64,000 nucleotides of DNA from Thermoplasmatota archaeon. GTDB taxonomy: Archaea > Thermoplasmatota > Penumbrarchaeia > JANQNL01. The stretch lies in assembly GCA_028279585.1 (NCBI GenBank), contig JANQNL010000003.1:1327-65326 (forward strand), in the 5' to 3' direction. Each line of letters begins with the position of its first letter. Position 1 is the stretch's first letter. The position numbers and the translations under genes are program-made. Of the stretch, positions 17,414 through 42,837 are shown one piece after another. The notes beneath the pieces are model-generated. The model did no database searches. It was not told where the DNA came from and saw only the letters and a list, made by a program, of their open reading frames with translations.

Positions 17414-17502
17414 ATGAGCACCTTCTGTGAGGCCAGTGTTGTGGAATGGAAGTGTGGTATTTAGAGGTTATCGTGAAGAGTTCTATAGGGGGTGGGTAGC
17501 CA

Positions 17503-21015: not shown

Positions 21016-21051
21016 AAAGGCTTTGAAAAATTACTGATAAGAATCGATATT

Positions 21052-21112
21052 CAGAACTGTTATAGCACTAGAATTCTAGTTCTGGATATCGACCCCTTCT
21101 TCTCCCTTTTTC
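21052..21112. terminator. Hairpin (CAGAACT...AGTTCTG enclosing the 12-bp palindrome CTAGAATTCTAG) plus a T5 tract between convergent genes
   Basis: Read from the sequence. Confidence 0.35.
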
Positions 21113-21178
21113 GAAGCCTGCCGGAGGTTGACCATCTATTTTCGGGTACATTGATGGAGGGTGCCAATTATTGAATAT

Positions 21179-22174: not shown

Positions 22175-22227
22175 CAAAGGGGGAATTACCTATCAGGTAT
22201 AAATGGGAGTCGAACCTTCAGGCCAGC

Positions 22228-22965
22228 ATGGACCGCGAAGAGTACTTCATGGAGCTTTACGGCACTCTACCCAGAGCAGGACCAGGCGATAGCAACTCCA
22301 CAAGACGGGCGTTCGAGCAGCTTAAGCTCGTCGACGAACCGAAGATCCTCGACGTAGGATGCGGTCCGGGCGTGCAGACCGTGGACCTCCTCAAGATGAC
22401 CAAAGGCACGGTTGTAGCTCTTGACTTTTACCAGATCATGCTCGATAGGACCAAGGCCCTCGCCGAGAAGGAAGGTGTAGCAGATAGGCTTGTGACCACT
22501 CAAGGTGACATGACCGACATGGATTGGAAGCTGGAAAGTTTCGATGTGGTCTGGTCAGAAGGAGCGATCTACATCATAGGTTTTAGACGTGGTCTTGAGG
22601 TCTTCAAGTCGTTCCTCCGACCTGGAGGATATCTCGTAGCAAGCGAAGCTGTATGGCTCAAGCCAGACCCGCCGCACGAGGTCAAGGTCTTCTGGGATGA
22701 GTACCCAGAGATAGACTTCGCAGACGAGAAGCTCAAGATAGCAGAGGACCTCGGTTACCATTACGTGGACCACTTCATCTTACCTCACTCATCGTGGACC
22801 ACCCCCTACTACAACCACCTCGTCATCAAGGTCGAGGAGAAGGAGGAGGAGTGGAAGGGCATACCTGAGGCCGAGGACGTCCTGGTCGAGGCTAGGAACG
22901 AGCTTGCAGTGTTCGAAAAGTATGCAGAGTATTACTCCTACGCGTTCTTCATCTTGAGAAAGTGA
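22228..22965 (+). CDS. Class I SAM-dependent methyltransferase
   Basis: ILDVGCGPGVQT motif I. The ORF-track start at 22117 overlaps the opposite-strand dehydrogenase. I prefer the ATG at 22228. Confidence 0.7.
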   Translation: MDREEYFMELYGTLPRAGPGDSNSTRRAFEQLKLVDEPKILDVGCGPGVQTVDLLKMTKGTVVALDFYQIMLDRTKALAEKEGVADRLVTTQGDMTDMDWKLESFDVVWSEGAIYIIGFRRGLEVFKSFLRPGGYLVASEAVWLKPDPPHEVKVFWDEYPEIDFADEKLKIAEDLGYHYVDHFILPHSSWTTPYYNHLVIKVEEKEEEWKGIPEAEDVLVEARNELAVFEKYAEYYSYAFFILRK

Positions 22966-23346
22966 TCATTTCCTATAGGTCTTGATCCACAGGATGTGGC
23001 AGGTAACGCCTACTCCTACGACAAGTAGTAGGAGTCTTATTTCAAGTATGTCCGTGAACAGGAACGCAGATACTCCCAGTGTTGCCCACAACAAGGCTAG
23101 TGTGATGATCTTGTTCCTGACCCTCATGCCCTTGCGTTCAAGATAGTTCCGCAGGTACTCTCCACAGAGCTTGTTGTTGAGCAACCACTTGTACATCTTC
23201 TCCGAGCTACGGACATAACAGAGAGCTGCAAGGATGAGGAACGGAGTGGTGGGAAGCAGAGGGAGGAAGATGCCTAGGATGCCTAGACCTAGACATATCG
23301 TTCCTGCTATGAGGAGGATGACCTTGAGAGGCTTCAGAGCCATCAT
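22966..23346 (-). CDS. Small membrane protein, DUF454/YbaN-like
   Basis: 126 aa with four predicted TM segments and a YbaN-like pattern. Confidence 0.55.
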   Translation of the reverse strand: MMALKPLKVILLIAGTICLGLGILGIFLPLLPTTPFLILAALCYVRSSEKMYKWLLNNKLCGEYLRNYLERKGMRVRNKIITLALLWATLGVSAFLFTDILEIRLLLLVVGVGVTCHILWIKTYRK

Positions 23347-23380
23347 AGCTTGGAATGGACTGGTGGTTTATGGACTTTGG

Positions 23381-26300
23381 TCAATCCTCTTCCTCAGTGC
23401 TCCATACCTCATCCCCATCCTCATCGATTGACTCAAGCTCTGCAAGTTCCTCTTCGAACTCCTCTTCCGGTGTTAGCTCTTGTAGTTCCTCATCCATATC
23501 CTCATCTGGAAGGTCATCCCATCCTTCATCCTCGGGATCCAATACTTCTACTTCGATAGGTTCGACCTTTGGCATGTCCTCTTCATCTTCCTCCACCTCC
23601 TCCTCTTCCTCGACCTCATCCGGTTCAGAGGCTTCCTCTTGATCTTGGGACATGCGGCTTCTGACGAACAGGAGCGCAACGATAGCGACCAGTATCAAGA
23701 CCAAGATCGCCACGATGATAAGGATGATGTTCGCGGTTCCCAGGTCTGAACTGGAACCACTACCTGGGTCCTTCTCGATGATCGGTAATGTATAATCTGC
23801 ATCGCCTGTTTCATTGACCGTCAGAGTGAAGAAATAGTCACCGACCGGTGCCTTGATGGTCACATCATATGTTCCGGGTTCCAATCCCTCGAACGTCACA
23901 TGGCCGTCATCGTTGGTGGTCTCTTCCGTTCCATCATCCAGTATCATTACGATACCATCTGCTGGTTCTCCATCCTCGTACACCAAGGGTCCTACATCAA
24001 TATCGTATGTAGGTGTAATCCCATCCCAGACCTTGACAGTAAAGTTGAGGATATCAGTACCACCCCGACCATCGGCCACTGTTAGCTCCACCCAATATGT
24101 TCCAATGTCTGCTTGGGTAGGAATACCTACGATCCTTCCAGTCTCGATGTCCAACCACCCTGCGTTCGTTCTCAATGACCAGGTCAATGTATCCCCGTCA
24201 AGGTCCGTCGCGATCAGGCTCTCGATATACATCTCGTCATAAACGACCATCGTAGATGGGTCCATGTCAATGATCGGGTCCTCGTTGGGTTCTGGGACGT
24301 CAATGACATTGATAGTGAACGTCTGTGTATGGAACTCATCTCCATCGGTGACGTTCACAATGACGATATGCTCTCCCACTTGGTCTTTCGTCGGTGTCCA
24401 TGTGATAGCGCCTGTTGCTCCATTGATGTTCATTCCTGCCGGAGCGCTATCGAATGAGAATGTCAGGACGTCCCCGTGAATGAGATCATCATCGATTGCG
24501 GTCACATTGTATGTGTACTTCACAAGTTCTGTAGCGTTGAGGACAGGTGTGCTGACGATCGACGGTGGGTCGTTCGTGTTCTCGACGGTCAAGGTAAAGT
24601 TCTCAACTGTCTGCCCACCTAATCCATCGCTCACCTGTATCTCTACCCAGTAGGAGCCTACATCATTGTTGAGAGGAGTTCCACTGAGTACCCTTGTTCC
24701 TGCGTCAAAGCCCAACCATCCTGCATTGCTGTCCATGGACCAGGTCAAGCTGTCACCTGTTGGATCAGGGTCTGTTGCAGAGTATGTGACGGAGTATAAT
24801 GTGTCCTCGTAGGCAGTATCAACATGGTCTGTATCGATGACAGGACCATCATTGGCATTTGATACTTCTATCGAGAAGTTTGTGAAGGATGAACCACCCT
24901 TCTCATCAGACACGGTGACATTGGCCCAGACGGACCCAACATCGTCGTTGGTCGGTGTTCCCGAGAGGACTCCGGTGTTGAGGTCGATATCGAGCCAATC
25001 CGCTTCTGTATGGAGAGACCATGTCAAAGTATCACCGGTAGGATCGATGTCGTGAGCCTCGTAATCGACGGAATACTCAACGTCCTCGGTGGCTGTCTCG
25101 ACATCCACCGTATCGATGATCGGGTCGTCATTGACGTTCTCTACGGTTAGGATGAAGTATTGGAAATCGCCCGCACCAACAGTGTCGTTGACGGTAACAT
25201 TCACCCAGTATGAGCCAACCTCTGAATTAGTCGGTGTTCCAGAAAGAACCCCGCTCATGACATCGATGCTCAACCATCCCGCATTCGTATCGAGTGCCCA
25301 GGTCTGCGAGTCGCTGGCATCAACATCCGTTGCATTGTAGTCGACCTCATACAGAACGTCCTCATCGGTCGTGATCTGCTCTAGGGTCGTTATTGAAGGT
25401 GCATCATTGGTGTTGAGAACGATCAGAGTGAGGTTAACAGTGTCCGTTGCATCGAACGCATCAGTGATGGTCATTTCCACCCAGAAGGTCCCAACATCAT
25501 TGTCCCCTGGAGTGCCTGATAGGACACCATCGGTCAAGGTCAACCAACCGCTCGCATTGGTCCTCAAAGACCATTGCGGGATGCCGCTCGGGACAATGGT
25601 GATATCGAAGAGGATGGTCTGGTTGTAGAACAGGTCCTCTGTGGCATCTGGTAGGGAATCAGTAAGGATCTGTGGAGGATAGTAGAACTCAAGAAGATGA
25701 TCGAAGTATGGATAGGACCTCGTGTTCTCGATGGCCCAGACATTGGTAAAGTCCCAGCCAGCTCCAGTGAACGTAGTGCTTGTCATCATCTGGGTCGTTG
25801 TCTGTCCAGTTCCACCATCACTTGCTGCCTGGCCCGACGTTTGAGTATCCCAGAAACAGTTGGTGATCGTGCCGAAATTCTCTCCGCAAAGGCCGCCTGT
25901 CAGGGTGGTTCCGGTTACCGATCCAGAGCTGTAGGCATCATCGATGGTTCCTTGGTTGCCGCCTACCAATCCACCGACCTTGTCGTTTCCGGACACATCT
26001 CCTTGAGCGTAACAGTCCTTGATGGTTCTTGTATTATTTCCTACTAAACTTCCGGTATTGTTGTTTCCAGAGACATCGCCATATGAGCAGCTGTGCTCGA
26101 TAATTGCATTGGAGTCAAAGGAGATTCCCGCCAACCCACCTACGAAGTCAATACCAGAAACATCACCAAAGTTTGTAGATGTGACAATACTTCCCCGGTC
26201 ATTCTCACCAATGATACCACCAACATTGTTCATTTCACCATCGACCGAGCCAAGGTTCGTGCAATTTGTAACATCGGAATCATAATTATAACCGATGATA

Positions 26301-29300
26301 CCGCCTACATCGTATGATGTTCCATAGATGTCATCGTGGTTCGTGCAATTGGCGAGTGTTAGGGTCCAGCCGCTACCAACAATACCAGCAACAGAAGAAT
26401 TTCCATAGACGTAACCGTAGTTGTGTGAATTGATCACTGATCCGGTACTGAAATACCCAATTATTCCACCCACAGCATTTGCGGTTCCGGTAACATTGCC
26501 ATTGTTGGTGCAATCCAAAACAGTTCGACTAGAACCATACGCACCTACGATCCCGGCACCATTCACAGATACACAGGTGATATCGCCCCAGTTAGTGCAG
26601 TTCGTGATATCCTTGTTACAATAACCGGTCATACCGCCAATATTAGAATCTCCGGAAACATTTCCAAAATTGACATTGTCTTTTAGTTCCCGGGTGGATC
26701 GGCCGGCGATACCGCCTCCATTAGAACCAGAAGAGTTGATGTCGCCATAGTTCACACATCGCTGAAGGTTTCCAGTATTAAGATAACCACAAATACCTCC
26801 GATTTGATCAACACCAGAAATGTTACCGTAATTATAGGAATTATGGATGTTACCACCACCCATTGAATGAAGACCAGAGATTCCACCGAGATAGTCTTCT
26901 CCACTAACATCGCCATAGTTGATATTGAAATTTAAGTCACCACCCCGATGCATTCCTATTATTCCACCGATCATTTCTTCACCGGATATTGTACCAAAAT
27001 TTTGATTATTAGTTGCCCAGTGACTCCCAGAAAATCGGTAAAAGTAGCCAATAATTCCTCCAACGTAGTCCTCAGTTCCTGTTACAGATGCATAGTTTGA
27101 GTTATGTTTTAGATCAGAGTTGGAGGCATATCCTGCAATCCCACCTACGTCCTCTGCTCCGTAAATTTCTCCATGATTCGAACAATTCTCAATCATTGAA
27201 TTGGAACCAAGGTATCCTACAATTCCTGCCGCATTATCCTCATCGGAAATAACAGAACCATAGTTGGAGCAATTATGGATCTCACCTGCAAAACCACCAA
27301 CAATACCACCAACCATAAAATCGGTAGCATAAATCGTACCATAGTTTATTAAACCAAAATAATAGGTGTTTTGCTGGAACCCAGAAATTCCACCGACGCT
27401 GTAATCACCAGTGACATTTCCGTGGTTCGAAGAGTTCACAACTGACGCACCATCTGCAATGCCGTTTATACCACCAGCATAAATTCCCGTCCCATTTATT
27501 ATTCCATAATTCTCACAATTGGAAATGGGAGTTCCATCATTTCCACCAATGATGCCGCCTGTGTTATGTTCACTAAAAATATAACCAAGGTTTGTACAAT
27601 TCTGGATAACACCCGTGTTAGATTGGCCAACAATTCCACCAGAGTATTCATTTCCAGAGATCATACCTTCATTTGTGCAGTTTTTGACCTGTGAAGAGAA
27701 TTGCATTCTTCCAACAAATCCTCCGACATCATCATCTCCACTTGATACATTTCCATAATTCGTGCAGTTGAAGATATAAGAATTTAAAGTAAGGAAGCCT
27801 GAAAATCCACCCAACCCCCAGTCCGTACCTCCGAACACATCGCCGTGGTTAGTCGTTTTACTGATTGTTGTTCCCTCAGCTTCACCTACGATCCCAGCAC
27901 CACGGCTGAGAGTACAATTGACATCGCCATAGTTTACACACATCTCAATGGTCGCAGAATTGGAATGCCCAACAAGCCCCCCTACATAGAATGAACTGGT
28001 TACATCTCCGTAATTGATGCAGTTGAACATAGTTTCATCACTAAAATAACCGCTTATTCCAGCGACATCTATACTGGTTCCAGTAACCAAACCTTCGTTT
28101 ACACAATTGGACAATCTTGCTTCACTACTTGATCCTGCAATACCTCCCAGATGGTGTTCCCCATCAATATTCCCGTAATTATATCCATCAATAATGTCTG
28201 ACTCCGCTACATAACCACATATTCCACCAACACTCTCCGTTCCGGTAACATTGCCATGATTGATCGGATTCTTAAGAGAACCAAAACCATCGATATACCC
28301 TGTGATACCACCGGTTGCTTCATCAGTGGCAGTTATCTCACCGTAGTTTTGAGTGTAGTTCAAGTAAATATCTTCCGAATTACCGATTATTCCAGCGGTG
28401 TATTCTACTCCATAAACATCACCATAATTGGTACAGTTCTCGATGGAAGCGACTTCGTTTCCACCAACGATTCCTCCGGACTTATAATCCCCCTTGATAG
28501 TACCATAATTGGTACAATTTCGAATATCCACCGTGTAGGCATTTGCAACAATTCCACCGGTACTTGTATCACTGTTTGTGACATCGCCATAGTTGTGGCA
28601 TCCGAAGATGTCAATGTAGTCTCCCACACCTACCAACCCACCGGTTTCATCACTTCCTTCGATATCTGCACTATTTGTACAGTTGTTAAGTACTCCATTT
28701 TCAAACAGACCAACCATCCCACCGATCAGACTATCACCTAGGATGGTACCCTCGATCGAGCTGTTGAATATAGTTCCCTCATAAAATACACCACAAAGGC
28801 CAATAAGATCATCTCCTTTGATGTAAGCATTGATCAAGTGCAGGTTCTCCAACTTTGAGTCCTGATCATTTATTTGTCCAAAGAGCCCAACACGATCCTC
28901 AGAAGGGCGGTTGATGTAAAGACCATCAACAACAAAGCCCTGACCATTCAACGAGCCAGTAAATGGAGTTGAGGTTGTTCCAACAGGTTCGAAACCATCC
29001 CCATCATACCAGAACTTTGACTCGGAAGCATCAAAACTGTTGACTATGGTGAAGTTCGCCCACAGGTAGTTCCTCATATTCTGAAGATCGAAAACGTTCT
29101 TGATCTTGAACGGATCGCCAACTGTTCCCGAACCCCCTAAGGTGGAATACGTCCCAAAGAATGGATAGGTCTCGTCCTCGAAGATGGACCAGATACCTGT
29201 GAAGTTCCAACCGGGAGTGATGAAAGTTGCCGCCTTTTGCATTAGGGCTGTTGTCTGTCCAGTTCCGCCATCACTTGTCGCTTGACCGGATGATACTGTG

Positions 29301-32300
29301 TCCCAGAAACAGTTTCGGATTGTTCCACCAGTGTTGTCACCACAGAACCCACCAAATGTACTTGATGCTGTCACAGCCCCAATGCTGTAACTTGTATTGA
29401 TGCGCCCGATATTCTCTCCAACAAAACCGCCAACGGTTGAACTTCCTGTGACCGAGCATTTTGAAAAACTGTTATCGATGGACCATTCGTTCCTTCCGGC
29501 AAATCCACCAGCAGTGTCTCCTGTCCCTGCACCTTTAACAACTGAACCAGTACTGAAACTTCGGTTGATCGATCCAAAATTCCGACCAACAAAACCACCG
29601 TATGTGCTGTTTCCAGTTATCGTTGCATCTATAGAAGCACTATTGTTGATTTCCATATTTGACCAGGCTGCAACGCCACCAATATAAATATCGCCGGTAA
29701 TGTCGCCGTAATTGAAGGAGTAATTTACCAACCCCTCACCATTTGCCTCTCCGACAACCCCGCCAATATAATCATCTCCTGAAACATCACCAAAATTATT
29801 CGAATTATAGATCGATCCTTCTATTATGATCCCGGCGATGCCCCCAAGACGATTTCCATAATAAACATCCCCATTATTATCACAATTGGAGATCTCACCA
29901 ATATCGAGATAACCGGTTATTCCACCGACACCATAATTTGCCACTATTAAGCCGTTGTTCACGGAATCAAAAACATCGCTGTCATCTTGTATACCGACAA
30001 TACCTCCAACGTAGACATCGCCTGAGATCGTGCCATAGTTGATGCAATCTATGATCTCTTGGCCATTTTCCTCACCGGCAATCCCACCAACCTCGTCATC
30101 TGCAGTAACACTTCCATAGTTCACACAATTATAGATCGAAGCGGTATTTCTGATCCGGCCAACAATACCACCAGCCTCGTCTCTGGTGGTAGAAACGTTT
30201 CCGAAGTTTACACAGCGTTCGATGGTTCCTCCACTTACATAGCCAAAAATTCCACCAACATCATCATTGTTGTGTGTTACATTCCCCCAGTTGATACAAT
30301 CCTGCCCTCCCTTGGAGTTTGACCCAGCTATCCCCCCTACTTCCTGGGCCTGACCATTGATCAGACCATAATTGGTATGGTTATTGAAGACCGATGCGGT
30401 ATTTGTTCCAACGATCCCACCAGTCGATCTTAGACCCTGGATGTGACCGTAATTTGTGCAATTGACAAATTCTGAACCTGCAAAGTAACCAACAATACCT
30501 GCGTTCCTCCAGCTGTTCCCTTTGATCGATCCATTGAATGTGCAATTCCTAAGAATGCCACCGCTTATTCTCCCTGCTAGGCCAGCTTTCTGGGAATTTG
30601 CCTCGATATCGAAATCGTCCATATGAATGTTCTGGAATACCGATGAACTGAGACCCGCGGTACCAAAAATGCCTTGATCGTTGCTCCTTGGCCTATAGAT
30701 GTTCAGGCCTGTTATTGTGTATCCCTGACCGTCCAGAGAACCCTTGAACATAGAAGAACTGGTCCCGACAGGAATGAAACCAACACCGCCATTCCAGACC
30801 TCGGTTTCTGAAGCATCAAAGCTGTTGTTAATAATATAAACTCCATTCAGGTCGTTCTCCATACCCTGGAGTTCGTAAACATTTGTGATAACATATGGGT
30901 CTCCGGCTGTTCCACTTCCAGTAGGTGTTGGATAAGTGATGAGGTCGAACATAGGACAAGTCTCGTCCTCTCTGATCATCCAGACATTTGTGAAGTCCCA
31001 GCCTTTGGCTGTAAATGTAGCCTGCATCATCATATCGTCATTCCAAGTTGCGATCCCGCCATCACTTGAACCAGTCCCGGAATTATCTCGATCAAAGAAG
31101 CAGTTTGCGGAAATGGTTCCACTGTTGTCACCGCAGAAACCGCCAACATTTGTATTTCCTAAAACAAGCCTTGTGCTGTAGGACATACTGATGGTTCCAG
31201 AGTTCTGTCCTACAAAACCACCAACAGAAGTATCACCGGTGACCTCACCCCAGGCATAAGTATTGTTGATCACTCCACTGTTGTCACCAACGAATCCACC
31301 GATACGATCATCACCGGATGCATCACCGGTAGCAGAGGAGTTTTCTATAGTGTCGCTATTTATACCTGCAAATCCACCGATCTCATCTGCCAAACCGGTT
31401 CCGGTAGCCGTCCCGGTTGCTGAACACCAGTAGATATCTCCACCATTGTATCCTATAAATCCCCCAGCCTGTGAAGAACTGGCCTGGGCATTCCCTGTTG
31501 CAGAGCAATACTTAAAGATAGCATCATCGCTCTCTCCAGCAAAACCCCCAATATAATCCGATCCGGTAGCATTACCGCTGCTTGAGCAATTCTCAATAGA
31601 TATGATCGTTTCGACATATCCAACGAATCCTGCAACATACGAAGTGCCGGATGCATCTCCTGAGCTTGTGGAATTAATGATAGACCCATAACTACCACCT
31701 ACAAAGCCACCTATGTCAGATAATCCATTTATGTCACCAGAAGCAGAACTGTTTGATATTGACCCGGAAAAGTGCAATCCAACGAAACCCCCAACATTGT
31801 CAACGCCTCCAACATCTCCGGTTGCAAAGCAATTTTCAACAGTGCCTTGGTTTTCTCCAATCAAGCCTCCAACATTACTCAAACCTGAAATATCTCCATA
31901 AGAATGGCAGTTGGTGACTGTAACGTCATTATTTACAGTTCCGGAAATACCTCCAATGCTTGATGCAGTACCAGTCATTTTTCCATAGTTATAACAGCTC
32001 CAAATTGAAGCGTTATCAAGCCTTCCAGCTATTCCACCAAGAAGTTGAGGGGAGTCTCCGTCACCATAGTTAATACAATCAAACATATCGCCAATTTGAA
32101 GCCTTCCCGCAATCCCACCAACATATTCATTACCAGAGAAGTTTCCTACATTAGTGCAGTTCCAAATATTTGATATATCATCTGCTCGACCTGCCACACC
32201 ACCAACCCATCGATCTCCGGTAAGATCGCCATAGTTTGAGGAGTTGCAAATATTAAGGTTATCTCCTTCCCCGACAATTCCACCGGTAAGATCATCTCCA

Positions 32301-34405: not shown

Positions 34406-34471
34406 ATATATAGCATTCTAGTCAGGTCAGTTCAAGTGATACAACCTGAACCAATGGCTTGGATCGACCGA

Positions 34472-37375
34472 CTAGTCTGCCCATTCATCTTCATCCTGTT
34501 CTTCTTCCAACTCCACCTGGTCCCACCCCTCGTCATCTGGTTCATCTTCATCGTAATCGAGGTCATCGTCCTCATCGAACTCATCTTCTCGCGGTTCATC
34601 TCCATCTACGCTCTCTTCCTCCTCGACCACCTCCGTTTCCGGCTTGATGTCCTCTGTGACCTCCGCGTCCACGATCTCGTCCTTGTCCTCGAACAGGTCC
34701 TCCTCCCCTATCTCCACATCCTCCTCCGGGATCCTCGGGCTTTCCTCTTCCTCCCTGTTCTTCAGGAACAGCAGGACGCCTACGATAATCGCTATGATGA
34801 CAATAACAGCGACAACAAGAAGGACCAGGTAGAGAGCGTTCCCAGCAAGGTCGCTGGAGGACTGGCTTCCACCATCTTCCCCATCTGTGGCCCCACCATC
34901 CGTGGTGTTGGTCCCACCGTCGGTTCCATCAGTGGTTCCGCCATCGGTACCGTCCGTAGTGTTGCCATCGGAGCTTCCTCCATCGGTACCGTCTGTGGCC
35001 CCACCATCAGTAGAACCGCCATCGCTTCCACCATCTCCACCATCCACGACGACCTCCTCGATGCGCTCGATGAACACTGTTTGCTTGCACACATCCGAGT
35101 TTATTGTGCCATCAGAGATCGTTAGGGTGATAGTGTAGGTCATGTTCTCCTCGAGTTCAGGATAGGTGTAGGATGTCTCCAGACCCTGGCTGACATTTCC
35201 CTCGCCAAGGTCCCAGAGGTAGGTGAGCAGATCTCCATCTACATCAGAAGCTGTATTTGCTTTGAGCGCGACTGATGTCCCATTGACGCTTGCCGTGAAG
35301 TTGTTGTTCACTGGTTCGTCGTTGACCGGAAGGACCGTGACATCCACAAAGGCCGAGACCTCGAGCTCTGTGTCGTTGGCTGTGAAGTAGAGCCTCTCCG
35401 CTCCATTGTAGTTCAGCTTTGGGGTGAGCTCCACGGTCTCGTTCGGTAGGATGATGATGCTGATGTTCACGTTCTCCTCGAAAGTGAAGACCAGATCGTC
35501 CCCATCGATGTCCGAGAACCAGTGGTTCAGGTCAATGTCGTTATTGACAGTGTCCTCATCGAAGCTGAAGTCGTCAACGGAGTTGTTCACCCTCGGCCCA
35601 TCATTGGTGTTGTGGACAGTGAGCGTGAACAAAGAATGGGCCTCCCCACCGTTCCCATCGGCAACAGATACATTGACAGAGTAGGTGCCGATGTCTGCCT
35701 GGACCGGTGTCCCTGAAAGGAGGCCCCCGGTCGTCATGGAGAGAAAACCTGCATCCGAGCTCATGGCCCAGAACAGATTGTCTGAAGTTGGATCGATGTC
35801 ATCTGCGGAGTATTGGACCGAGTACTTCTCATCTTCGTGTGCGTCGAGAACATCGTTGGTCAGGATCATCGGGTCATCGTTCACGTTAATGACCTCGAGC
35901 GTGAAGTTCGTATGGTCCGACATGAACGTGGTGTCGGTCACAGTAACGTTGACCCAGTAGGTCCCAACATCCTCGTTCAATGGGGTTCCAGACAGGTTGC
36001 CGGAGATCGCGTCCATGGAAAGGAAACCTGCATCGGTATCGACGGTCCAGGTAAGGACGTTCTCGTCGAGGTCGATAGCTGTATACGTCACAAGATACTC
36101 TTCATCCTCTGTGGCGTTGATGTCGTTCACCGTCTGGATCTCAGGTTCGAAGTCCGGAGGGTCCACCTCGAATGCGACCCTGCAAGGCCGGACCATGTTG
36201 AAGATCCTAATGATATCTCCCTGGGGTCCATTGCCATTAGGCCAGTTGGATGGGTCTCCGTCCTTCGGGTCGCTCCTCTGGGCTCCTGCGCCGTGGACGT
36301 CTGTGAAGACGTAATTGCCGGAGTTCGGAGGCATCTCGTTCCATCCCCATGCCTCACCGAAGGCTACGTAGGCTCCCCAAGGTGTACCACCATCAAGGTG
36401 TGTAGAGGATGACCAATAGAACCCATAATCCGGATAGATTCCGGAACCGATATCTGTGATATTGAACACATCATCGATCGCGGGTCCGACATTCTGGGGG
36501 TCCGTTGCGTTCGGAGCTTTGGAGTATTCAAGGATACCCTGAAGCTCCTTCGCGTTCGGCAGGTACCAATCATCATGTCCTGCAAGTGTCAGTGAAGTGC
36601 AGTAGTCCAGTGCATCACTCCAGTTCATCCCGGAGCCAGAGTCGTCCTTGGCCCACATGAGGCCTGTGGCGTTATCGGTGATCGTTCCATCGCCATTGTC
36701 GATGAAGTCATTGACACCATAGTCTGTAGGACCACGGACGTACATCGCTTCGCACTCCTTTTCGAATTGGTTCCCCGGTGGACCCACAGGCTCTGCTGGG
36801 TACCCCTTGATCCTGCCATCTGCGAAGTTCACACCAAAGGCGGTCTTGTCCCCACCCATGGTCTCTCCGACATAGAGTGTGGATGACCAGTACTGAGCAT
36901 CGATGAACCTCTCCCCTGCAGACTCATCTCCGTACTCGAAATCAAAGATGTCGTCATCGAGGAACGGGTCGGAAGTGGCAGCGCTGTTACCACAATATCC
37001 CGAAAAGTCCATCAGGGAGTATAGCTCCTTTATAGTTGGGAGTCTCCAATCATCATACCCCGCAAGGTCGAGGTCATCGGCACCAGACACGGCATCATCC
37101 CAGTTCACGTCCTCGCCTGGTGTCTTCTGCCACATGAGGCCGGTGTTCAGGTCCAGGACCGTCCCATCTCCCATGTCTTTATAGCTTGGAGAGGTACCAT
37201 CGACCTGGGCATCCTGGCCATACCATTGCTCCCCCTCGTTCGGGTCGGGTATGTATCCGTCCTCATCAAAGCAGTCTTCCTGGTTCGTGTCTACCACGAC
37301 ATAGCTTGCCATGACAAGGGACGAGAACAGTACAAAGCTTATCATTCCTATGAGCAGGGATGTTGTCTTTCTCAT
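34472..37375 (-). CDS. Surface protein (~967 aa). Domain order: signal peptide, 2x DUF1566, about 4 cadherin-like/He_PIG domains, a G/S/T/D-rich stalk, TM helix, poly-acidic tail.
   Basis: MRKTTSLLIGMISFVLFSSLVMA signal with a GGAGGTG RBS. The ORF track extends to 37528. The DUF1566 region is highly similar to that of the giant protein. The stalk reads DGGDGGSDGGSTDGG... The TM is LYLVLLVVAVIVIIAIIVGVLLFL, followed by an acidic tail containing DEGWD. Confidence 0.8.
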   Translation of the reverse strand: MRKTTSLLIGMISFVLFSSLVMASYVVVDTNQEDCFDEDGYIPDPNEGEQWYGQDAQVDGTSPSYKDMGDGTVLDLNTGLMWQKTPGEDVNWDDAVSGADDLDLAGYDDWRLPTIKELYSLMDFSGYCGNSAATSDPFLDDDIFDFEYGDESAGERFIDAQYWSSTLYVGETMGGDKTAFGVNFADGRIKGYPAEPVGPPGNQFEKECEAMYVRGPTDYGVNDFIDNGDGTITDNATGLMWAKDDSGSGMNWSDALDYCTSLTLAGHDDWYLPNAKELQGILEYSKAPNATDPQNVGPAIDDVFNITDIGSGIYPDYGFYWSSSTHLDGGTPWGAYVAFGEAWGWNEMPPNSGNYVFTDVHGAGAQRSDPKDGDPSNWPNGNGPQGDIIRIFNMVRPCRVAFEVDPPDFEPEIQTVNDINATEDEEYLVTYTAIDLDENVLTWTVDTDAGFLSMDAISGNLSGTPLNEDVGTYWVNVTVTDTTFMSDHTNFTLEVINVNDDPMILTNDVLDAHEDEKYSVQYSADDIDPTSDNLFWAMSSDAGFLSMTTGGLLSGTPVQADIGTYSVNVSVADGNGGEAHSLFTLTVHNTNDGPRVNNSVDDFSFDEDTVNNDIDLNHWFSDIDGDDLVFTFEENVNISIIILPNETVELTPKLNYNGAERLYFTANDTELEVSAFVDVTVLPVNDEPVNNNFTASVNGTSVALKANTASDVDGDLLTYLWDLGEGNVSQGLETSYTYPELEENMTYTITLTISDGTINSDVCKQTVFIERIEEVVVDGGDGGSDGGSTDGGATDGTDGGSSDGNTTDGTDGGTTDGTDGGTNTTDGGATDGEDGGSQSSSDLAGNALYLVLLVVAVIVIIAIIVGVLLFLKNREEEESPRIPEEDVEIGEEDLFEDKDEIVDAEVTEDIKPETEVVEEEESVDGDEPREDEFDEDDDLDYDEDEPDDEGWDQVELEEEQDEDEWAD

Positions 37376-37654
37376 GGTAACCACCTCCACTATTTGTCGA
37401 CCCGAGGCCTTTTCTTCATTGTCGTAAAGATCTGGACGAGCTCGATGTCCACTTCGTACAGTATCCCACAGTGGGGACATGGGTACTTGGTGTTCGTGAT
37501 TCCCGGAACCGGAATATCCTTGCGACAATCCGGGTAAATGGGCCTATCACGTGTCTCGATCCTATCCATAGGTCGGGCTTCCTTGTTCTATCCATCCGAG
37601 TTGAATGTATATATTGATAGACCGAAATGACACCCAAATCGTTCCCAAATTCGT

Positions 37655-40600
37655 TCAGTCCATGAACTCGAGATCGTCATCATCATCATCCCAATCCACG
37701 TTCTGGCCATCATTCTCCTCACAGTCATCATCGTAATGCTCCTCGTCGTCTCCATCCTCATCCTTCTTCCTCTTCATTATGATCACGAGGACGATGGCGA
37801 CAACGTTGATAGCACAGACGACCAATATAGCGACCACACCACCTATGACAGCGTACAGAAGGGTCGGGTCCGATCCCTGTTCCCCATCCCCATCATCGAT
37901 TGGGGGGTTCTGGTCCATAGGCGGGTCCTCGGTCCCGTTCGGCTCATCCGTTGTGTTTTCGATCACAGGCTCCTGGGCCTTGACGGTCACGGTCATAGTG
38001 TCAGTAGCAGACCAGGCACCATCCTCATCCTTTACCACCAACGTGAACACATAGGTCCCTGCCTCTGTGGCCTTGAAGGAAGCGGTCTCCTTTACCTCAT
38101 CTATGATGGATAGAGAGGGATGCGTCGTGCAGTTCCATTCCCAGGAAACTATAGTGCCATCGCTATCACTAGACCCTGTTCCGTCCAGTGAGACCGTATC
38201 TCCTACTTCAGCAGCGACATCGGCTCCAGCAGCAGCGATCGGCTTGATATTTGGGCGATCGATCACAATTACGATGACCGTTTCGGTCCCAGTGGACCAC
38301 AGGTCCAGATCGTCCATCACTCGAAGTGAGAAGGTGTAGGTCCCGGTCTCTGTTGGAGTGAACGAAGGGGCCGATGAATTAGCATTGGTCAGCGTCAAAC
38401 TGTAGCTTGTACACACCCATTCCCATCCCGCGATGGAACCTTCAGGATCTGTGGAATTGGCACCATCCAAGTACACGACCGTGTTCACATAGGCCTGGAG
38501 ATCGGTTCCGGCGTTTGGTGTTGGAGGGGTATTATCCTGGATGATATTGACGACCACCTCATCTTCCAAAGCCCATGCACCTCGATCATCCTTGACGGTC
38601 AATGTGAATGTGTACGTCCCAACGGTCGTTGGAGTGAAGAACGGGTTGTACGTGTCCTTATCTGTGATCGCAAGTGATGCATGAGATGTGCAGTTCCAAT
38701 CCCACACGACGATGCTTCCGTCCGTGTCCACGGAGTCCGAACCATCCAGGTATATCTTGGTGTTCGGGTAACCCGAGATGTCTGGTCCAGCATTGGCCGT
38801 GGGCTTGACGTTCGGAGGGACCTCTACAGTTATGGAGACCTCGTCTTCCACAGACCATGCATTGGATGTATCTTTGACCACTAAAGAGAACGTGTATGTT
38901 CCTGTGGTGTCGGGGGCGGGAAAAGTAGGCATCATTGCAGACTCTGAAGAAAGTGAAACTGCAGCCGGATTCGATGCAGACACGTTCCAATCGAAAGTCA
39001 GGGCGTTCATTGCATCCTCGGCATCCGTAGAAGCGGAGCCGTTCAGGGTCACAGACGCACCAATATAGACGGTCTGATCAGAACCTGCGTTTGCGGTCGG
39101 GACAGTGTTCGCTGCCGTCACAACGATGTCAACAGTATCTGATACAGAGCTCCATCCGAGGTCTGAGTCCTGTACCCTCAGTGTAAGGGTGTAGGTTCCC
39201 TCATGGGTCGGTACCAATGATGGCTTTGCAGCTGCATCTGATGGCGAGAGGTTCGCATCCGTCATCGTTGATCCTGCAGGCTGGGATGATATCCCCCAGT
39301 CATAGATGAGGAGAGATCCCACCGCATCACCCGATGGGCAATCCTCTGCATCGCACGAGGCAGTGCCGTCCAGGTTCACAGTGTTTCCAAGGACGATTCC
39401 TTGATCATCCCCAGCATCTGCAACTGGAAGTGAGCCGGTGGCAAACTTGGTCTCATAGACCTTGATACCACTACCCCAGGATGCACCAGCGATGTCCTTG
39501 TCCCCATCTCCATCCATATCAAAGAACTGGGAACCATAGTAGGTCCCGGAGGTTGGTAATCCTTTATCAGAGACCTCTGTGAAACTGAAACCAGTTCCAG
39601 GGCTTGTGCTTCCATCTCCTAAGTAAAGATGGAGCCCAGAGCTCTCCTTGGCAGCGATCAGATCAAGGTCTCCATCTCCGTCAATATCTGTAAGGTCTAT
39701 CTGGCTGAACATGCCATTGGTGCCGGAACTTGCCATGCCGCCATTTGTCGAAGTGGGTGTGGTCCATGTGAACGAAGAACCTCCAGCTCCACCACTGTTA
39801 CCGAGCAAGACCTCCATCCCATCGTACCTGTCACAATAGACCATGTCCACATGGCCATCGTTGTTGAGATCTCCACATGCAACTCCTGTGAAATCCCCGG
39901 TGTAGGCTGCGGTTGGGAGTGTGCTGGAAACATCGGTCCATCCACTTGCTCCCTGGGTATAGACCCTCATCCCTGTGCTGGAGTAGTAACCTGCAGCTGC
40001 GATGTCTGGCGATCCATCGTCGTTGAGGTCTATCACATCGATGCCAGTGAACTGTCCCGAGCTTGGTAGACCGTTCGAGAAGCTTGTCCATGATATCGGT
40101 GAGGACCCACTGCCCGAGTAGACAGCAAGTCCAAAGCTTGGCTGCTTGGAGGAACAGACCGCGATGTCCAGACCGGGTCCGCCTGTGATGTTGGCAACAA
40201 GCAGATTGTTCGCAACCCCGGACGTCACGGGTGATGTGATCCCTGTTGTTGACCAGGACCCACCTGAGTATTCCCATGCTCCTACGCCCTTGTTCGGACC
40301 TGATGCACTGTTGTACCAGGTGTTCGCTCCATAGAGCTCCATGTTCCCGTCCTCATCAGCGTCTGCAAGGGCGATGCCACCCCATGAATCCACGGTCGGA
40401 AGTCCCGTGGAGGCCGAGGTCCAGGTACCAGCACCGTTGCCGGTATAAACCTCGATCCCTAGGGTGTTGTAGGATCCGTAATCGTTCCCACCAAAGGCTA
40501 TGTCCATGTTCTGGTCGCCGTTCACATCGCCTACGGTGATGAAGTTGTAAGCTCCAGAGGTCGGAAGGTTCGTAGACACGCTCGTGCCGAAGTCATCAAG

Positions 40601-40696
40601 CTCTTCGGCTGATGCCGTGGTCATCACACATATCATCGAGAAGATGATCATAATGACCAAGGCTGCTATTGATAAGATAGTGGTGGTCCTTTTCAT
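37655..40696 (-). CDS. Surface protein (~1013 aa). Domain order: signal peptide, FG-GAP/VCBS beta-propeller, about 5 PKD domains, TM helix, acidic tail.
   Basis: FG-GAP motifs (GDVNGDQNMDIAFGG, DLNDDGSPDIAAAG, DIDGDGDLDLIAA, DMDGDGDKDIAGA). PKD-like repeats (ANAG.DQ...LDGS.S.D.DG.I..W.W). TM then KRKKDEDGDDEE...DWDDDDDDLEFMD. ATG at 40696 with an AGGAGGTG RBS. Confidence 0.8.
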   Translation of the reverse strand: MKRTTTILSIAALVIMIIFSMICVMTTASAEELDDFGTSVSTNLPTSGAYNFITVGDVNGDQNMDIAFGGNDYGSYNTLGIEVYTGNGAGTWTSASTGLPTVDSWGGIALADADEDGNMELYGANTWYNSASGPNKGVGAWEYSGGSWSTTGITSPVTSGVANNLLVANITGGPGLDIAVCSSKQPSFGLAVYSGSGSSPISWTSFSNGLPSSGQFTGIDVIDLNDDGSPDIAAAGYYSSTGMRVYTQGASGWTDVSSTLPTAAYTGDFTGVACGDLNNDGHVDMVYCDRYDGMEVLLGNSGGAGGSSFTWTTPTSTNGGMASSGTNGMFSQIDLTDIDGDGDLDLIAAKESSGLHLYLGDGSTSPGTGFSFTEVSDKGLPTSGTYYGSQFFDMDGDGDKDIAGASWGSGIKVYETKFATGSLPVADAGDDQGIVLGNTVNLDGTASCDAEDCPSGDAVGSLLIYDWGISSQPAGSTMTDANLSPSDAAAKPSLVPTHEGTYTLTLRVQDSDLGWSSVSDTVDIVVTAANTVPTANAGSDQTVYIGASVTLNGSASTDAEDAMNALTFDWNVSASNPAAVSLSSESAMMPTFPAPDTTGTYTFSLVVKDTSNAWSVEDEVSITVEVPPNVKPTANAGPDISGYPNTKIYLDGSDSVDTDGSIVVWDWNCTSHASLAITDKDTYNPFFTPTTVGTYTFTLTVKDDRGAWALEDEVVVNIIQDNTPPTPNAGTDLQAYVNTVVYLDGANSTDPEGSIAGWEWVCTSYSLTLTNANSSAPSFTPTETGTYTFSLRVMDDLDLWSTGTETVIVIVIDRPNIKPIAAAGADVAAEVGDTVSLDGTGSSDSDGTIVSWEWNCTTHPSLSIIDEVKETASFKATEAGTYVFTLVVKDEDGAWSATDTMTVTVKAQEPVIENTTDEPNGTEDPPMDQNPPIDDGDGEQGSDPTLLYAVIGGVVAILVVCAINVVAIVLVIIMKRKKDEDGDDEEHYDDDCEENDGQNVDWDDDDDDLEFMD

Positions 40697-40867
40697 GGGG
40701 GGCACCTCCTGTTCTTATCAAGAACTACCCCCAAGGAACATATTAAGGGATTTACCAGATTGAGCCCCAATTCAGACCCAAATTCATTCTGAATTTAGGT
40801 CATCCAAAAATAAACTGAACTGATCTTTGACCCTATTCGTTTAAGTTTGGATCATACCCAAATTGGA

Positions 40868-41350
40868 CTACTCCAGGCTAAGGTAGAGCAATATGGCCAA
40901 AGCTATGCCGATACACATGTCCGATAGCATCATGAACGGGCCTAAACCCTCGAGCTTGTATCCGAAGGTCTCATGGATGACAGGATTGGCAGTGATGGCG
41001 TAGATGAACAGTGCACTCATCATGATGAGCAGTCCTAGAGTGAACTTGGACTTGACCTTTTGGTACATGTTGATATACAAGTATATCAACGGGAAGAGCA
41101 GCGCGATATTGATGAATGAGAACATGGTCTTGAGGAAATAGAACTGTCTATGACCTACAGGTCTAGCAGGTGGAGGGGGTTGACCATCCGGTGGAGGAGG
41201 TTGACCATCCGGAGGAGTTGGCTGGTCATCGGCAGATCTCTCATCTTCTGTTTCTATGACCATAGGCAGCACGCTCGTTGCTAAGGCTGCTATGATCACG
41301 CCTAATATGACAAGACCTGCGATCATCCCGATCCGGTGAAGCTCTTTCAT
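40868..41350 (-). CDS. Membrane protein with Pro-rich PPDGQPPPP repeats
   Basis: TM helix, then TPPDGQPPPPDGQPPPPARP, then 3-4 TM segments. AAGGAG RBS before the ATG at 41350. Confidence 0.5.
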   Translation of the reverse strand: MKELHRIGMIAGLVILGVIIAALATSVLPMVIETEDERSADDQPTPPDGQPPPPDGQPPPPARPVGHRQFYFLKTMFSFINIALLFPLIYLYINMYQKVKSKFTLGLLIMMSALFIYAITANPVIHETFGYKLEGLGPFMMLSDMCIGIALAILLYLSLE

Positions 41351-41379: not shown

Positions 41380-41739
41380 TTAAGTCTGATTTTTCCCAAT
41401 TTGTTCCCAAATCTCCTCGAAGACCTCGAAGTTCTCTTCTAAAAGTGGGGACACGAAATACATCTTGGCGTACTTCTTCCCAGAGGAGGTAATCATATCG
41501 TTCTCCTCTAACACGTCAAGATGATGTCTGACGGTCTTGTAGTCAAGCTCCAGCACCTCCGCTAACTGGTTAGCATTGTAAGGACGCTGGTCGAGGGTGT
41601 GGATGATCCGAGCCCTGTTGAGACCTCCGGTGCTGCCTGCTAGAAGCCACCAAAGGAGACGCTTGACCGCTCTCATTGAAGATTCATAATAAGCACTCGG
41701 ATAAAAAGGTAGAGGGTAACCTATGCAAAGTTTCGCCAA
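41380..41739 (-). CDS. Winged-helix transcriptional regulator (ArsR/PadR-like)
   Basis: RARIIHTLDQRPYNANQLAEVLELDYKTVRHHLDVLEENDMI is an HTH region. It sits immediately upstream of the Pro-rich membrane protein. Confidence 0.55.
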   Translation of the reverse strand: MAKLCIGYPLPFYPSAYYESSMRAVKRLLWWLLAGSTGGLNRARIIHTLDQRPYNANQLAEVLELDYKTVRHHLDVLEENDMITSSGKKYAKMYFVSPLLEENFEVFEEIWEQIGKNQT

Positions 41740-41860
41740 TCCCCTTCAAATGATATCGGACCCGAAAGACCTATAGCGCCTGTCCTAGTTCCATTCGTAA
41801 TACTAAATGGCAAGTTCCACGTTGCCGGTAATATTCAACATCCATATTGGAGGAGATCGA

Positions 41861-42830: not shown

Positions 42831-42837
42831 TTACCAA

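Follow-up and report, generated by a model that had tools for sequence, protein, structure and literature searches.

Fibrillar adhesins are laid out as a head, a stalk and an anchor (PMC8286594). Big_9 is one of their listed stalk domains, and these proteins evolve rapidly by domain shuffling (PMC8286594, PMC9210967). Regarding DUF1566, the C-terminal domain of Legionella Lcl has been solved as a DUF1566 adhesin head and described as C-type-lectin-like, the role of the protein being surface adhesion (PMC11162425). Diversity-generating retroelements are known to target DUF1566 as well, as a ligand-binding domain (PMC5758913).

In the window, by which we mean the whole stretch of 64,000 nucleotides that was analysed, three consecutive co-oriented minus-strand ORFs, named here G1, G2 and G3, lie where a preliminary description had placed them. 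On balance, we think it probable that they encode three membrane-anchored, probably N-glycosylated surface proteins of a heterotrophic archaeon, which would most likely be fibrillar adhesins or ligand-capture proteins. The genes, their parts and their neighbours are as follows:

22966..23346, minus strand, DUF454 small membrane protein
23381..34366, minus strand, G1, type I surface protein of 3661 aa (ORF, Pfam, start site)
23381-23659, minus strand, G1 acidic cytoplasmic tail, after the hydrophobic core (topology)
23660-23728, minus strand, G1 TM helix (topology)
24002..25696, minus strand, G1 proximal stalk of five to six He_PIG/Big_9/Cadherin_5 Ig-like domains (Pfam, motifs)
25697..29131, minus strand, G1 GLUG module C, aa 1746-2890, about 35 coils
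29132..30946, minus strand, G1 GLUG module B, aa 1141-1745, about 16 coils (AlphaFold2 model)
30947..33034, minus strand, G1 GLUG module A, aa 445-1140, about 20 coils with N-cap and C-cap
33065..34225, minus strand, G1 distal head, aa 48-434, tandem DUF1566/Lcl_C with a conserved C-terminal extension (Pfam)
34405..34412, minus strand, TATATATA box, candidate G1 promoter read from the sequence
34472..37375, minus strand, G2, type I surface protein of 967 aa (ORF, Pfam; public call P0001 identical)
34472-34759, minus strand, G2 acidic tail (topology)
34760-34828, minus strand, G2 TM helix (topology)
34841-35053, minus strand, G2 G/T/D-rich linker
35090-35293, minus strand, G2 PKD domain (Pfam)
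35306-36175, minus strand, three G2 Ig/cadherin-like domains (Pfam)
36179-37309, minus strand, G2 head (Pfam Lcl_C)
37655..40696, minus strand, G3, type I surface protein of 1013 aa, start ATG 40696 (ORF, Pfam)
37655-37765, minus strand, G3 acidic tail (topology)
37766-37834, minus strand, G3 TM helix (topology)
37982-39403, minus strand, five G3 K319L-like PKD domains (Pfam, 203 bits)
39422-40594, minus strand, G3 FG-GAP beta-propeller (Pfam FG-GAP_3, 93 bits)
40868..41350, minus strand, polytopic membrane protein with a Pro-rich loop, related to a DUF8036-labelled protein
41380..41676, minus strand, ArsR-family winged-HTH regulator, 98 aa from M22 (Pfam HTH_5, 36 bits)

That these are three adjoining type I proteins, each with signal, ectodomain, TM helix and acidic tail, was borne out by ORFs, Pfam and topology, and every family named in the preliminary description (DUF1566, GLUG, cadherin-like Ig, FG-GAP and PKD) was found by Pfam above its threshold; the word giant suits G1, with its 3661 aa, but not G2 and G3, each of about 1000 aa. 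From its N-terminus, G1 consists of a signal peptide, the tandem DUF1566 head, three GLUG beta-helix modules, an Ig stalk, a CarboxypepD_reg-like domain, the TM helix and the acidic tail. Two of the starts lie inside the ORFs listed previously. G1 starts at ATG 34366, 39 nt inside, with a GGGGTGA Shine-Dalgarno a few nt upstream, and its 3661-aa product is the same as that of the public gene call P0361; a start at 34405 was rejected, since the TATATATA box overlaps that ATG. G2 starts at ATG 37375, 153 nt inside, with GGAGGTG upstream.

All three proteins begin with a hydrophobic signal and have one TM helix towards the C-terminus, followed by a basic stop-transfer and then by the acidic tail (96, 99 and 40 aa in G1, G2 and G3, of which 50, 54 and 22, respectively, are D+E), a layout in line with the positive-inside rule. 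With regard to the fibrillar adhesin class, the anchor is thus present as a Sec-type signal plus one C-terminal TM helix with stop-transfer, the tandem-repeat stalk as He_PIG, Big_9, Cadherin_5 and PKD repeats plus GLUG coils (Pfam), and the DUF1566 heads and FG-GAP propeller, being N-terminal, are placed far from the membrane anchor (Pfam), an adhesive role being known for that of Lcl only. N-x-S/T sequons are enriched, with 82 in G1 against 52 expected and 19 in G2 against 8.7 expected. The sequences support the view of G1-G3 as predicted C-terminally anchored type I surface proteins whose adhesion-type modules have been shuffled.

The heads of G1 and G2 match Lcl_C/DUF1566 (PF07603) with 125.7 and 145 bits, respectively, in two stretches each, the Pfam gathering score being 34.9 bits. 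Residues 48-434 of G1 and 23-399 of G2 are 50% identical (E = 8e-117), so the clear paralogy claimed previously holds, but not in the sense of recent tandem duplicates. The G1 head is 60% identical to that of the archaeal protein P0067 and clusters with archaeal G2-like proteins (98% bootstrap), and the nearest head to that of G2 (65%) is carried on a bacterial contig. Judging from these relationships, the two heads are old paralogs and not a tandem duplicate, and the shuffling of modules proposed for these proteins is real. When a model of the G2 head (pLDDT 88.6) is compared with the PDB, the top matches are all C-type-lectin-like domains (DEC205, Endo180/uPARAP, bitiscetin and SPL-1), which hints that the tandem head may adopt this fold, in agreement with the Lcl C-terminal domain (PMC11162425). 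Both heads are strongly acidic, with net charges of about -28 in G1 (50 D+E versus 22 K+R) and -50 in G2 (68 D+E versus 18 K+R). They were rejected as targets of a diversity-generating retroelement, since no reverse transcriptase was found among the scanned window ORFs and no repeat above 78% identity, as a template/variable repeat pair, in the window.

Below its head, G1 matches Glug (PF07581) with 166 bits, the Pfam cut-off being 20.5 bits. About 71 GLUG coils of 26-29 aa are split over the three beta-helix modules, each of which has an N-cap (G-x-G-T-x-x-D-P-Y) and a C-cap (F-W-D...G-W-D-F). The AlphaFold2 model of module B (pLDDT 93.4) is a capped three-stranded beta-solenoid, whose best PDB match is the GLUG protein 3n6z (E = 3.4e-5), then the IgA1 protease 7uvk, with tailspikes and autotransporter adhesins further down the list. 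He_PIG, Big_9 and Cadherin_5 are matched in both G1 and G2, whose Ig regions are 48% identical. Between the Ig-like repeats, at a spacing of about 92 aa, stands an N-x-N-D-x-P motif, four times in G1 (aa 2985, 3077, 3170 and 3263) and twice in G2, which we take to be a cadherin-like calcium-binding linker. The propeller of G3 has paralogs at 48.5-52.3 kb, FG2 (33%) and FG1 (30%).

In the mechanism that we propose, each protein would be exported by Sec and then held in the membrane by its one C-terminal helix, with the acidic tail in the cytoplasm. In G1 and G2, the tip of the stalk would bear the paralogous tandem DUF1566 head with its predicted C-type-lectin-like fold. The stalk of G2 would be short, with three Ig/cadherin-like domains, one PKD and the flexible G/T/D-rich linker, and may reach roughly 25 nm. 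In G1, the coils would form three capped beta-helical rods of about 34 nm (0.48 nm per coil) within a total stalk of roughly 60-70 nm, to which the five to six Ig domains and their cadherin-like linker motifs also contribute. Thus, the same kind of binding head would be shown at two heights. G3 would hold up a seven-bladed-type FG-GAP propeller on its five PKD domains. The ligands would probably be carbohydrates or other surface polymers, on particles or other cells. What the analysis shows directly is the structure of the genes, with their domains, topology, predicted folds, paralogy and composition; adhesion itself, like the ligand class, glycosylation, stalk dimensions and regulation, is what we infer for G1-G3. 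Among the other products of the window are a C25 protease anchored in the same way and enzymes of beta-oxidation and the TCA cycle, which would fit a particle- or polymer-degrading lifestyle.

As for expression, each of the three genes had been assigned its own promoter. TATA-like boxes at a suitable distance and Shine-Dalgarno sequences are indeed present for G1 and G3, but the sole TATA-like tract of G2 lies about 230 nt upstream of its ATG. Since, in addition, no oligo-T terminators were found between G3 and G2 or between G2 and G1, separate promoters are plausible, though unproven. The DUF454 gene starts 35 nt past the G1 stop codon with no T-tract between, and may for this reason be co-transcribed with G1. 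The pair of HTH regulator and membrane protein is present, but, when the genes are read as they are transcribed, it is immediately upstream of G1-G3 instead of following them as had been stated; with its shared orientation, this pair may control G1-G3. The HTH gene has a TTTTTAT tract about 26 nt before its ATG, which suggests a leaderless transcript, and the membrane-protein gene starts 30 nt past the HTH stop codon with its own AAGGAG Shine-Dalgarno. The HTH is 67% identical to one preceding a G2-like gene in another archaeon (L051/L052), where the order of HTH, membrane protein and DUF1566 protein is found again; among the three archaeal relatives examined, this is the only one in which the pair adjoins a DUF1566 gene. 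The C-terminal 96 aa of the membrane protein are 49% identical to the DUF8036-labelled protein of L051, and the Pfam search gave no match for either of them. A 142-aa minus-strand ORF at 41771-42199 is spurious, the plus-strand ORF there (41807-42382) being rubrerythrin.

The host is an uncultured, poorly sampled archaeon. No close relative was found: among 5.8 billion proteins, none is more than 53% identical to the product of the flanking IDH gene, and for LtrA the best homolog reaches 70% identity, on tiny contigs. Genome and metagenome scans gave no syntenic relative of the block. P0067 and its relatives P0091 and P0082 align with 77% of the length of G2 at 40-41% identity and share its whole layout, from the head through cadherin-like domains, PKD and an Asp/Gly-rich linker to the TM helix and the acidic tail. 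The archaeal-looking giants P0418, P0369 and P0504 have GLUG, Ig, TM helix and acidic tail, which is the layout of G1 minus the head. None of these six unites the DUF1566 head with GLUG, and no such fusion was found among the best 147 of 1.84 billion representatives. The acidic tails of the window proteins are two to four times longer than those of these relatives.

The deviation in GC and codon usage that the preliminary description had looked to over 23-41 kb is present in part of G1, but G2 and G3 are native-like, with GC3s values (0.63 and 0.56) near the 0.67 of housekeeping genes. The GLUG core of G1 (aa 446-2890, 7.3 kb) has a GC3s of 0.38, below the intergenic GC of 0.46 and different from the G1 head and tail (p = 2e-21). 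GC drops to 0.42-0.46 over 26-34 kb, and GC3 changes sharply at the head/GLUG (aa 450) and GLUG/Ig (aa 2750-2800) boundaries; the GLUG genes of two other archaea have no comparable drop. By these values, the compositionally foreign part of the block, and with it any compositional island, is the GLUG core of G1 only, and G1 may be a mosaic of a native-like head, this foreign core and a native-like Ig/TM/tail part. They would favour the entire 17-kb block being one horizontally acquired, strain-variable genomic island, as would the PIN/MazE toxin-antitoxin pair with deviant codon usage just upstream and the bacterial closest homolog of the G2 head. We consider such an island unlikely, however: the deviation is limited to part of one gene, another archaeon has HTH, membrane protein and DUF1566 gene in the same arrangement, and window scans revealed no integrase, transposase, tRNA border or flanking/direct repeat at the block borders, the only tRNAs of the window being at 1.9-2.2 kb. 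The GC3 steps could likewise be explained by an assembly artefact joining a foreign low-GC GLUG gene in frame to native sequence. This is hardly credible, since the 11-kb frame stays open through both junctions with sensible domain boundaries, similar GLUG/Ig/TM helix/acidic tail proteins occur elsewhere, and an independent assembly (Logan SRR20820740) matches 16797-32174 (15.4 kb) without a difference and contains the whole G1 gene as a 3674-aa ORF.

Two other functions have been weighed against adhesion. G1-G3 could form a structural envelope, an S-layer-like or glycocalyx coat that would be the chief layer for protection or spacing in an archaeon without a wall: each is anchored C-terminally, rich in sequons and probably an abundant surface feature, the housekeeping-like codons of G2 (deviation 0.108) are compatible with high expression, and other surface proteins of the window use the same anchor design. 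Nevertheless, we regard this coat as doubtful. The canonical S-layer identity that the preliminary description had set against its own proposal did not appear, as neither an S-layer family nor a PGF-CTERM or archaeosortase-type signal was found in G1-G3 (Pfam, NCBIfam), and their TM helices are followed by tails of 40-99 aa, unlike the extreme C-terminal signal of archaeosortase substrates. Moreover, the architectures are three unrelated ones, each ending in lectin-like or propeller modules on a long stalk, as is typical of adhesins and not of a lattice, the codon usage of G1 is poor, and full-length orthologs of G1-G3 were not found even where the heads are conserved. Equally improbable, in our opinion, is a role as substrate-harvesting receptors for algal polysaccharides, sulfated or other, serving extracellular degradation rather than attachment. 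Here, 16 of the best 119 DUF1566-head homologs also contain a sulfatase or arylsulfotransferase domain as a fusion (verified for P0094 and P0080), sulfated glycosaminoglycans are ligands of Lcl (PMC11162425), a further study reports its high-affinity binding to fucoidan (PMC6111780), and the beta-helix fold weakly resembles polysaccharide lyases and tailspike depolymerases. The strongly acidic heads nonetheless argue against direct polyanion binding, the block has no sulfatase, glycoside hydrolase or lyase gene, the lyase matches are insignificant (E above 0.1), and the GLUG helices have no known catalytic site.

Taken as putative fibrillar adhesins or ligand-capture proteins, G1 and G2 share with Lcl a DUF1566 domain at the tip of an extended stalk and, as predicted, the C-type-lectin-like fold (PMC11162425). 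However, their head consists of two domains in tandem, roughly 390 aa in all, with a conserved extension at its C-terminal end, and it is N-terminal instead of C-terminal. The collagen-like trimerising stalk of Lcl (PMC11162425) has no counterpart, as no collagen-like repeat was found in G1/G2 by Pfam. Since the heads are acidic and the glycosaminoglycan-binding face of Lcl is basic and positively charged (PMC11162425), its mechanism is not simply transferable, and the acidic heads and the lack of collagen-like repeats set G1 and G2 apart from an Lcl-type glycosaminoglycan-binding adhesin. With BACOVA_03286 (PDB 3n6z) and the N-terminal domain of streptococcal IgA1 proteases (7uvk/6xja), G1 shares the Pfam family and the capped right-handed beta-solenoid; contrary to them, it comprises about 71 coils in three modules and lacks a protease domain, and its GLUG helix would be a spacer between the lectin-like head and the Ig stalk. 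The adhesin-like proteins of Methanobrevibacter and Methanosphaera, from a lineage unrelated to this archaeon, also combine an archaeal host, a right-handed beta-helix, a Big-type stalk and a membrane anchor, but this anchor is mostly an N-terminal TM, their Big domains are archaeal, and they lack DUF1566 heads and acidic tails (PMC11532034).

A likeness in layout exists also with the bacterial fibrillar adhesins of the Monzon & Bateman class, which have a terminal putative binding domain, an Ig-like or repeat stalk and a surface anchor (PMC8286594, PMC9210967). The text of a fibrillar-adhesin survey mentions neither DUF1566 nor GLUG. Contrary to the members of that class, G1-G3 belong to an archaeon, are putative adhesins, and would be anchored by a C-terminal TM helix with a long acidic tail instead of by sortase, T1SS or T5SS. 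Made of known lectin-like, beta-helix, Ig-like and propeller modules, they would thus represent an ordinary kind of attachment gene cluster, with a few unusual details.

The region carries three consecutive open reading frames on the minus strand, whose products are best read as adhesin-like surface proteins that have a C-terminal anchor and evolve independently of one another, encoded downstream of a candidate regulator pair, with G1 being a compositional and architectural mosaic. The genes concerned are the following:

23381-34366, minus strand: G1, 3661 aa, tandem DUF1566/Lcl_C unit (the head), GLUG core and Ig-like domains
34472-37375, minus strand: G2, 967 aa, head and Ig-like domains
37655-40696, minus strand: G3, 1013 aa, FG-GAP propeller and PKD domains
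40868-41350, minus strand: polytopic membrane protein with a Pro-rich loop
41380-41676, minus strand: HTH gene of the ArsR family

The preliminary description had noticed a cluster of giant surface proteins here, an observation that proved to be real and correct in outline. Translations and Pfam scans of the three proteins confirmed every domain family it had named: Lcl_C/DUF1566 domains occur twice in both G1 (125.7 bits) and G2 (145 bits; cut-off 34.9), Glug in G1 (166 bits), and He_PIG, Big_9 and Cadherin_5 Ig-like repeats in both, with one additional PKD domain in G2, while G3 combines FG-GAP_3 repeats (93 bits) with five K319L-like PKD domains (203 bits). The common signal/TM/acidic-tail design also held, with hydropathy giving an N-terminal signal and a single C-terminal TM helix in all three, followed by two to four basic residues and an acidic tail (96 aa with 50 D+E in G1, 99 aa with 54 in G2, and 40 aa with 22 in G3).

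The same design is seen in a gingipain-type C25 peptidase with CARDB and Big_9 domains, encoded on the plus strand at 59814-63647, whose Ig region shares ~30% identity with the Ig regions of G1 and G2. The tails of these four proteins (23381-23659, 34472-34759, 37655-37765, and the C-terminus of the peptidase) contain more than 50% D+E over at most 99 aa, and carry Trp within acid runs near their C-termini (EGWDD and VDWDDDD, plus DEDEWAD and DDDVWM, which end at the stop codon); the peptidase tail additionally has a K/R-rich block. The acidic tails of relatives are shorter.

G1, all of whose coordinates were checked by translation, is organized as follows:

aa 48-434: head, ~390 aa, preceding the GLUG super-modules
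aa 445-1140: GLUG super-module A, ~20 coils
aa 1141-1745: GLUG super-module B, ~16 coils
aa 1746-2890: GLUG super-module C, ~35 coils
after GLUG: five to six Ig-like domains, then a CarboxypepD_reg-like domain, the TM helix and the tail

The coils, of 26-29 aa each and roughly 71 in total, are framed in every module by an N-cap (G-x-G-T-x-x-D-P-Y/F-x-I-x-N-V-x-E/D-L-Q) and a C-cap (C-F-W-D...S-D-G-G-T-G-Q-T-T...G-W-D/N-F-T-x-x-W). The array is old, since the modules (33-39% pairwise identity), their caps (42-58%) and the coils at the DNA level (just 60-76%) have widely diverged, and no near-identical repeats were found within it. Phase variation via inversion or tandem DNA repeats was rejected after repeat searches. 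Modelled with AlphaFold2 (pLDDT 93.4), module B forms a capped three-stranded beta-solenoid. In the PDB this model most resembles the GLUG protein 3n6z (E = 3.4e-5) and the IgA1 protease beta-helix, followed by tailspikes and autotransporter adhesins; a PDB sequence search with a GLUG module gave no match. At the Ig-domain junctions, a motif N-x-N-D-x-P, which we take to be a cadherin-like calcium-binding linker, is repeated four times with a spacing of ~92 aa.

The block had been proposed to be a variable or accessory island, to be checked by its GC and codon usage. This idea is only partly supported: the GLUG core of G1 (aa 446-2890) is compositionally foreign, but the rest of the block is native-like. 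Against a GC3 of 0.60-0.75 in the housekeeping genes of the window, G2 and G3 show values of 0.65 and 0.58 with a low synonymous-usage deviation (0.108 and 0.129), whereas in G1 the GC3 falls at aa 450 (window ~33.0 kb), precisely at the head/GLUG junction, is as low as 0.27-0.31 within the coils, and rises again at aa 2750-2800 (25.9-26.1 kb). The GC3s of the core (Met and Trp excluded) is 0.378, lower even than the intergenic GC of 0.457.

Amino-acid composition was rejected as the cause: the core's own amino acids would give 0.652 with housekeeping codon preferences and 0.537 with those of the G1 head and tail (chi-square p = 2e-21), and the shift is present in each amino acid. The idea that low GC3 is intrinsic to GLUG arrays was rejected too, since in two control genomes, a Thermoplasmatota MAG and Halopiger, GC3 does not dip in a similar way between the GLUG genes and the genes around them. 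The assembly is unlikely to be chimeric because the frame is open over both junctions and an independent Logan assembly contains the entire G1 gene at 100% identity. Most economically, G1 is read as a mosaic in which the 7.3-kb GLUG core derives from a more A+T-rich source, a clear case of a beta-helix core of foreign composition set in an otherwise native-like frame. The Logan contig stops inside the G2 head-coding region (window position ~36266), where there is no strong DNA repeat, and this break may be due to coverage or strain variation.

A second low-GC3 patch (GC3s 0.46) is found at 47660-52327, where an SDR gene is accompanied by genes for two FG-GAP membrane proteins paralogous to the G3 propeller (30-33% identity); FG1 (745 aa), one of the two, bears a polytopic membrane domain at its C-terminus. 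Two PIN-domain genes are located at 42408-43173 and 56421-56900; the former lies just upstream of the block, with a MazE/AbrB-type antitoxin partner and deviant codon usage.

Regarding synteny, a genome scan with the housekeeping IDH/HICDH-type dehydrogenase encoded at 21179-22177 on the minus strand returned Thermoplasmatota and other archaeal MAGs at no more than 51% identity and no shared neighbours. Its next-best homolog among 5.8 billion proteins is just 53% identical, which suggests either that the lineage is very sparsely sampled or that the origin of this gene is unusual. A metagenome scan with the window gene LtrA reached 70% identity at best, on contigs of 1.3-4.8 kb that are too short to reveal the gene neighbourhood, and the lineage is poorly sampled. 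The window is of archaeal origin, as seen from a thermosome, an eIF5A-arginase microsynteny shared with another contig (L035), and TATA and leaderless features; weak best matches suggest a relationship to Thermoplasmatota. In this archaeal context, 14655-15728 on the plus strand encodes an RsgA-type GTPase (171 bits), a type known mainly from bacteria.

The head is a conserved two-domain unit with two invariant blocks, D-V-H-G-A-G-A-x-R-x-D-x-K and G-x-G-P-x-G-D-x-I-R-I-x-N. The paralogy proposed for the N-terminal regions of G1 and G2 was borne out by the 50% identity of their heads (window 33065-34225 and 36179-37309; E = 8e-117), with stretches of their Ig regions sharing 48% identity; a recent tandem duplication, however, was rejected, since the heads occupy separate positions in a neighbour-joining tree of 40 heads. 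They are instead old paralogs or separate acquisitions. The G1 head groups (bootstrap 98%) with those of P0085, P0067, P0082 and P0091, type I proteins of G2-like architecture that look archaeal, and the G2 head is placed among heads that include named bacterial proteins. Its nearest head, that of P0056 (65% identity), is encoded on a contig with adjoining genes for a HisKA_3 kinase and a GerE-type response regulator, a bacterial context. The best 119 homologs of G2 align mainly via the head, and the named matches are bacterial (Sumerlaeota, Desulfobacterales, Verrucomicrobiota, Marinimicrobia, Latescibacteria and Anaerolineae; 45-65% identity). Because the identity of the head across domains of life (65%) exceeds the best value for the neighbouring IDH (53%), an inter-domain transfer of the head module is likely.

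With respect to transcription, each gene had been thought to have its own promoter. The first ATG of the G1 open reading frame is overlapped by a perfect TATATATA box (34405-34412), and the next ATG, at 34366, follows GGGGTGA and leads straight into the signal peptide; the public protein P0361 has exactly the 3661-aa sequence translated from this start. G3 starts at ATG 40696, preceded by AGGAGGTG and, ~50 nt upstream, by the TATA-like CTTAATATG. G2 starts at ATG 37375 with GGAGGTG ahead (public protein P0001, 967 aa), but its sole TATA-like tract is ~230 nt upstream. From this TATA placement, own promoters are plausible for G1 and G3; sequence inspection found no oligo-T tracts 3' of G3, G2 or G1, and read-through may also occur.

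The HTH gene of the upstream pair has a TTTTTAT tract ~26 nt ahead of its ATG, and the membrane protein gene begins 30 nt past the HTH stop codon. The repeated DGQPPPP of the Pro-rich loop corresponds at the DNA level to a 21-nt tandem repeat in 2.3-2.5 copies. A rubrerythrin gene (41807-42382, plus strand) diverges upstream of the HTH gene and occupies the locus of a minus-strand 142-aa ORF (41771-42199), which is thus spurious. In an archaeal MAG (L051, GCA_964614925.1) and a JGI contig (L052), the pair stands directly before, and co-oriented with, the gene of the G2-like protein P0067 (HTH 67% identical; membrane protein 49% over its C-terminal half), and C25 and C11 peptidases are encoded nearby, in L051 beside the DUF1566 gene itself. 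In two other relatives (L053 and L055) the pair does not adjoin a DUF1566 gene. The association is suggestive, and gives a candidate regulator/membrane-protein pair tied to DUF1566 adhesin genes in two archaea.

A conserved archaeal adhesin switch resembling Bacillus SdpR/SdpI would be one, rather improbable, interpretation of this pair. The DUF8036-like membrane protein would detect surface contact or a ligand, possibly via the cytoplasmic tails of the adhesins, which are long, acidic and Trp-bearing, and would sequester the HTH repressor, turning on the downstream DUF1566 adhesin genes, of which at least one (G2) may have a head of bacterial origin. The best NCBIfam match of the HTH protein, the SdpR autorepressor family, scores 31 bits, below the cut-off of 100, so that a repressor sequestered by its membrane partner is an analogy only; no Pfam match reproduced the precomputed DUF8036 label.

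Surface adhesins are thought to mediate the attachment of uncultured heterotrophic archaea to particles and polymers, and to our knowledge no adhesin from these lineages has been characterised. The ~390-aa tandem DUF1566 head (55-65% identity between bacteria and archaea) and the FG-GAP propeller are concrete targets for binding assays. Sulfatase or arylsulfotransferase fusions were found in 16 of the 119 best head homologs (P0094 and P0080 verified). A head model built from the homolog alignment (pLDDT 88.6, pTM 0.89) retrieved exclusively C-type-lectin-like domains as top PDB matches with Foldseek, at weak scores (best E = 0.019), and PDB sequence searches with the head, alone or as a profile, gave no match. 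This predicted fold is in line with the Lcl C-terminal domain, whose crystal structure is described as C-type-lectin-like and whose ligands are sulfated glycosaminoglycans (PMC11162425), and with the role of DUF1566 as a ligand-binding target of diversity-generating retroelements (PMC5758913). Unlike Lcl, the G1 and G2 heads are strongly acidic, so its binding mechanism is not simply transferable. A diversity-generating retroelement was rejected here, there being neither a reverse transcriptase among the scanned window ORFs nor a template/variable repeat pair.

Searches for G1 homologs used module B and the first 1200 aa, the latter giving 10,585 matches at E <= 1e-30 among 1.84 billion representatives. 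Lengths of 2000-7000 aa are frequent among the best 150; GLUG giants are common, and three (P0418, P0369 and P0504), which look archaeal, combine GLUG, Ig, a TM helix and an acidic tail. A DUF1566 head was present in none of the 147 other sequences scanned from these best 150. Two head-only proteins outside those 147, P0091 and P0039, ranked in the top 150 (~495 bits), so that any representative with both head and GLUG would be expected in the list; among the best matches listed, the head-GLUG fusion so far appears unique. The locus does not overturn current understanding. Comparable classes are the fibrillar adhesins of bacteria (PMC8286594) and the adhesin-like proteins of methanogens (PMC11532034), multiple adhesion domains linked to particle attachment have been reported in Marine Group II archaea (PMC4511931), and the domain reshuffling in G1-G3 is normal for such shuffled adhesin families.
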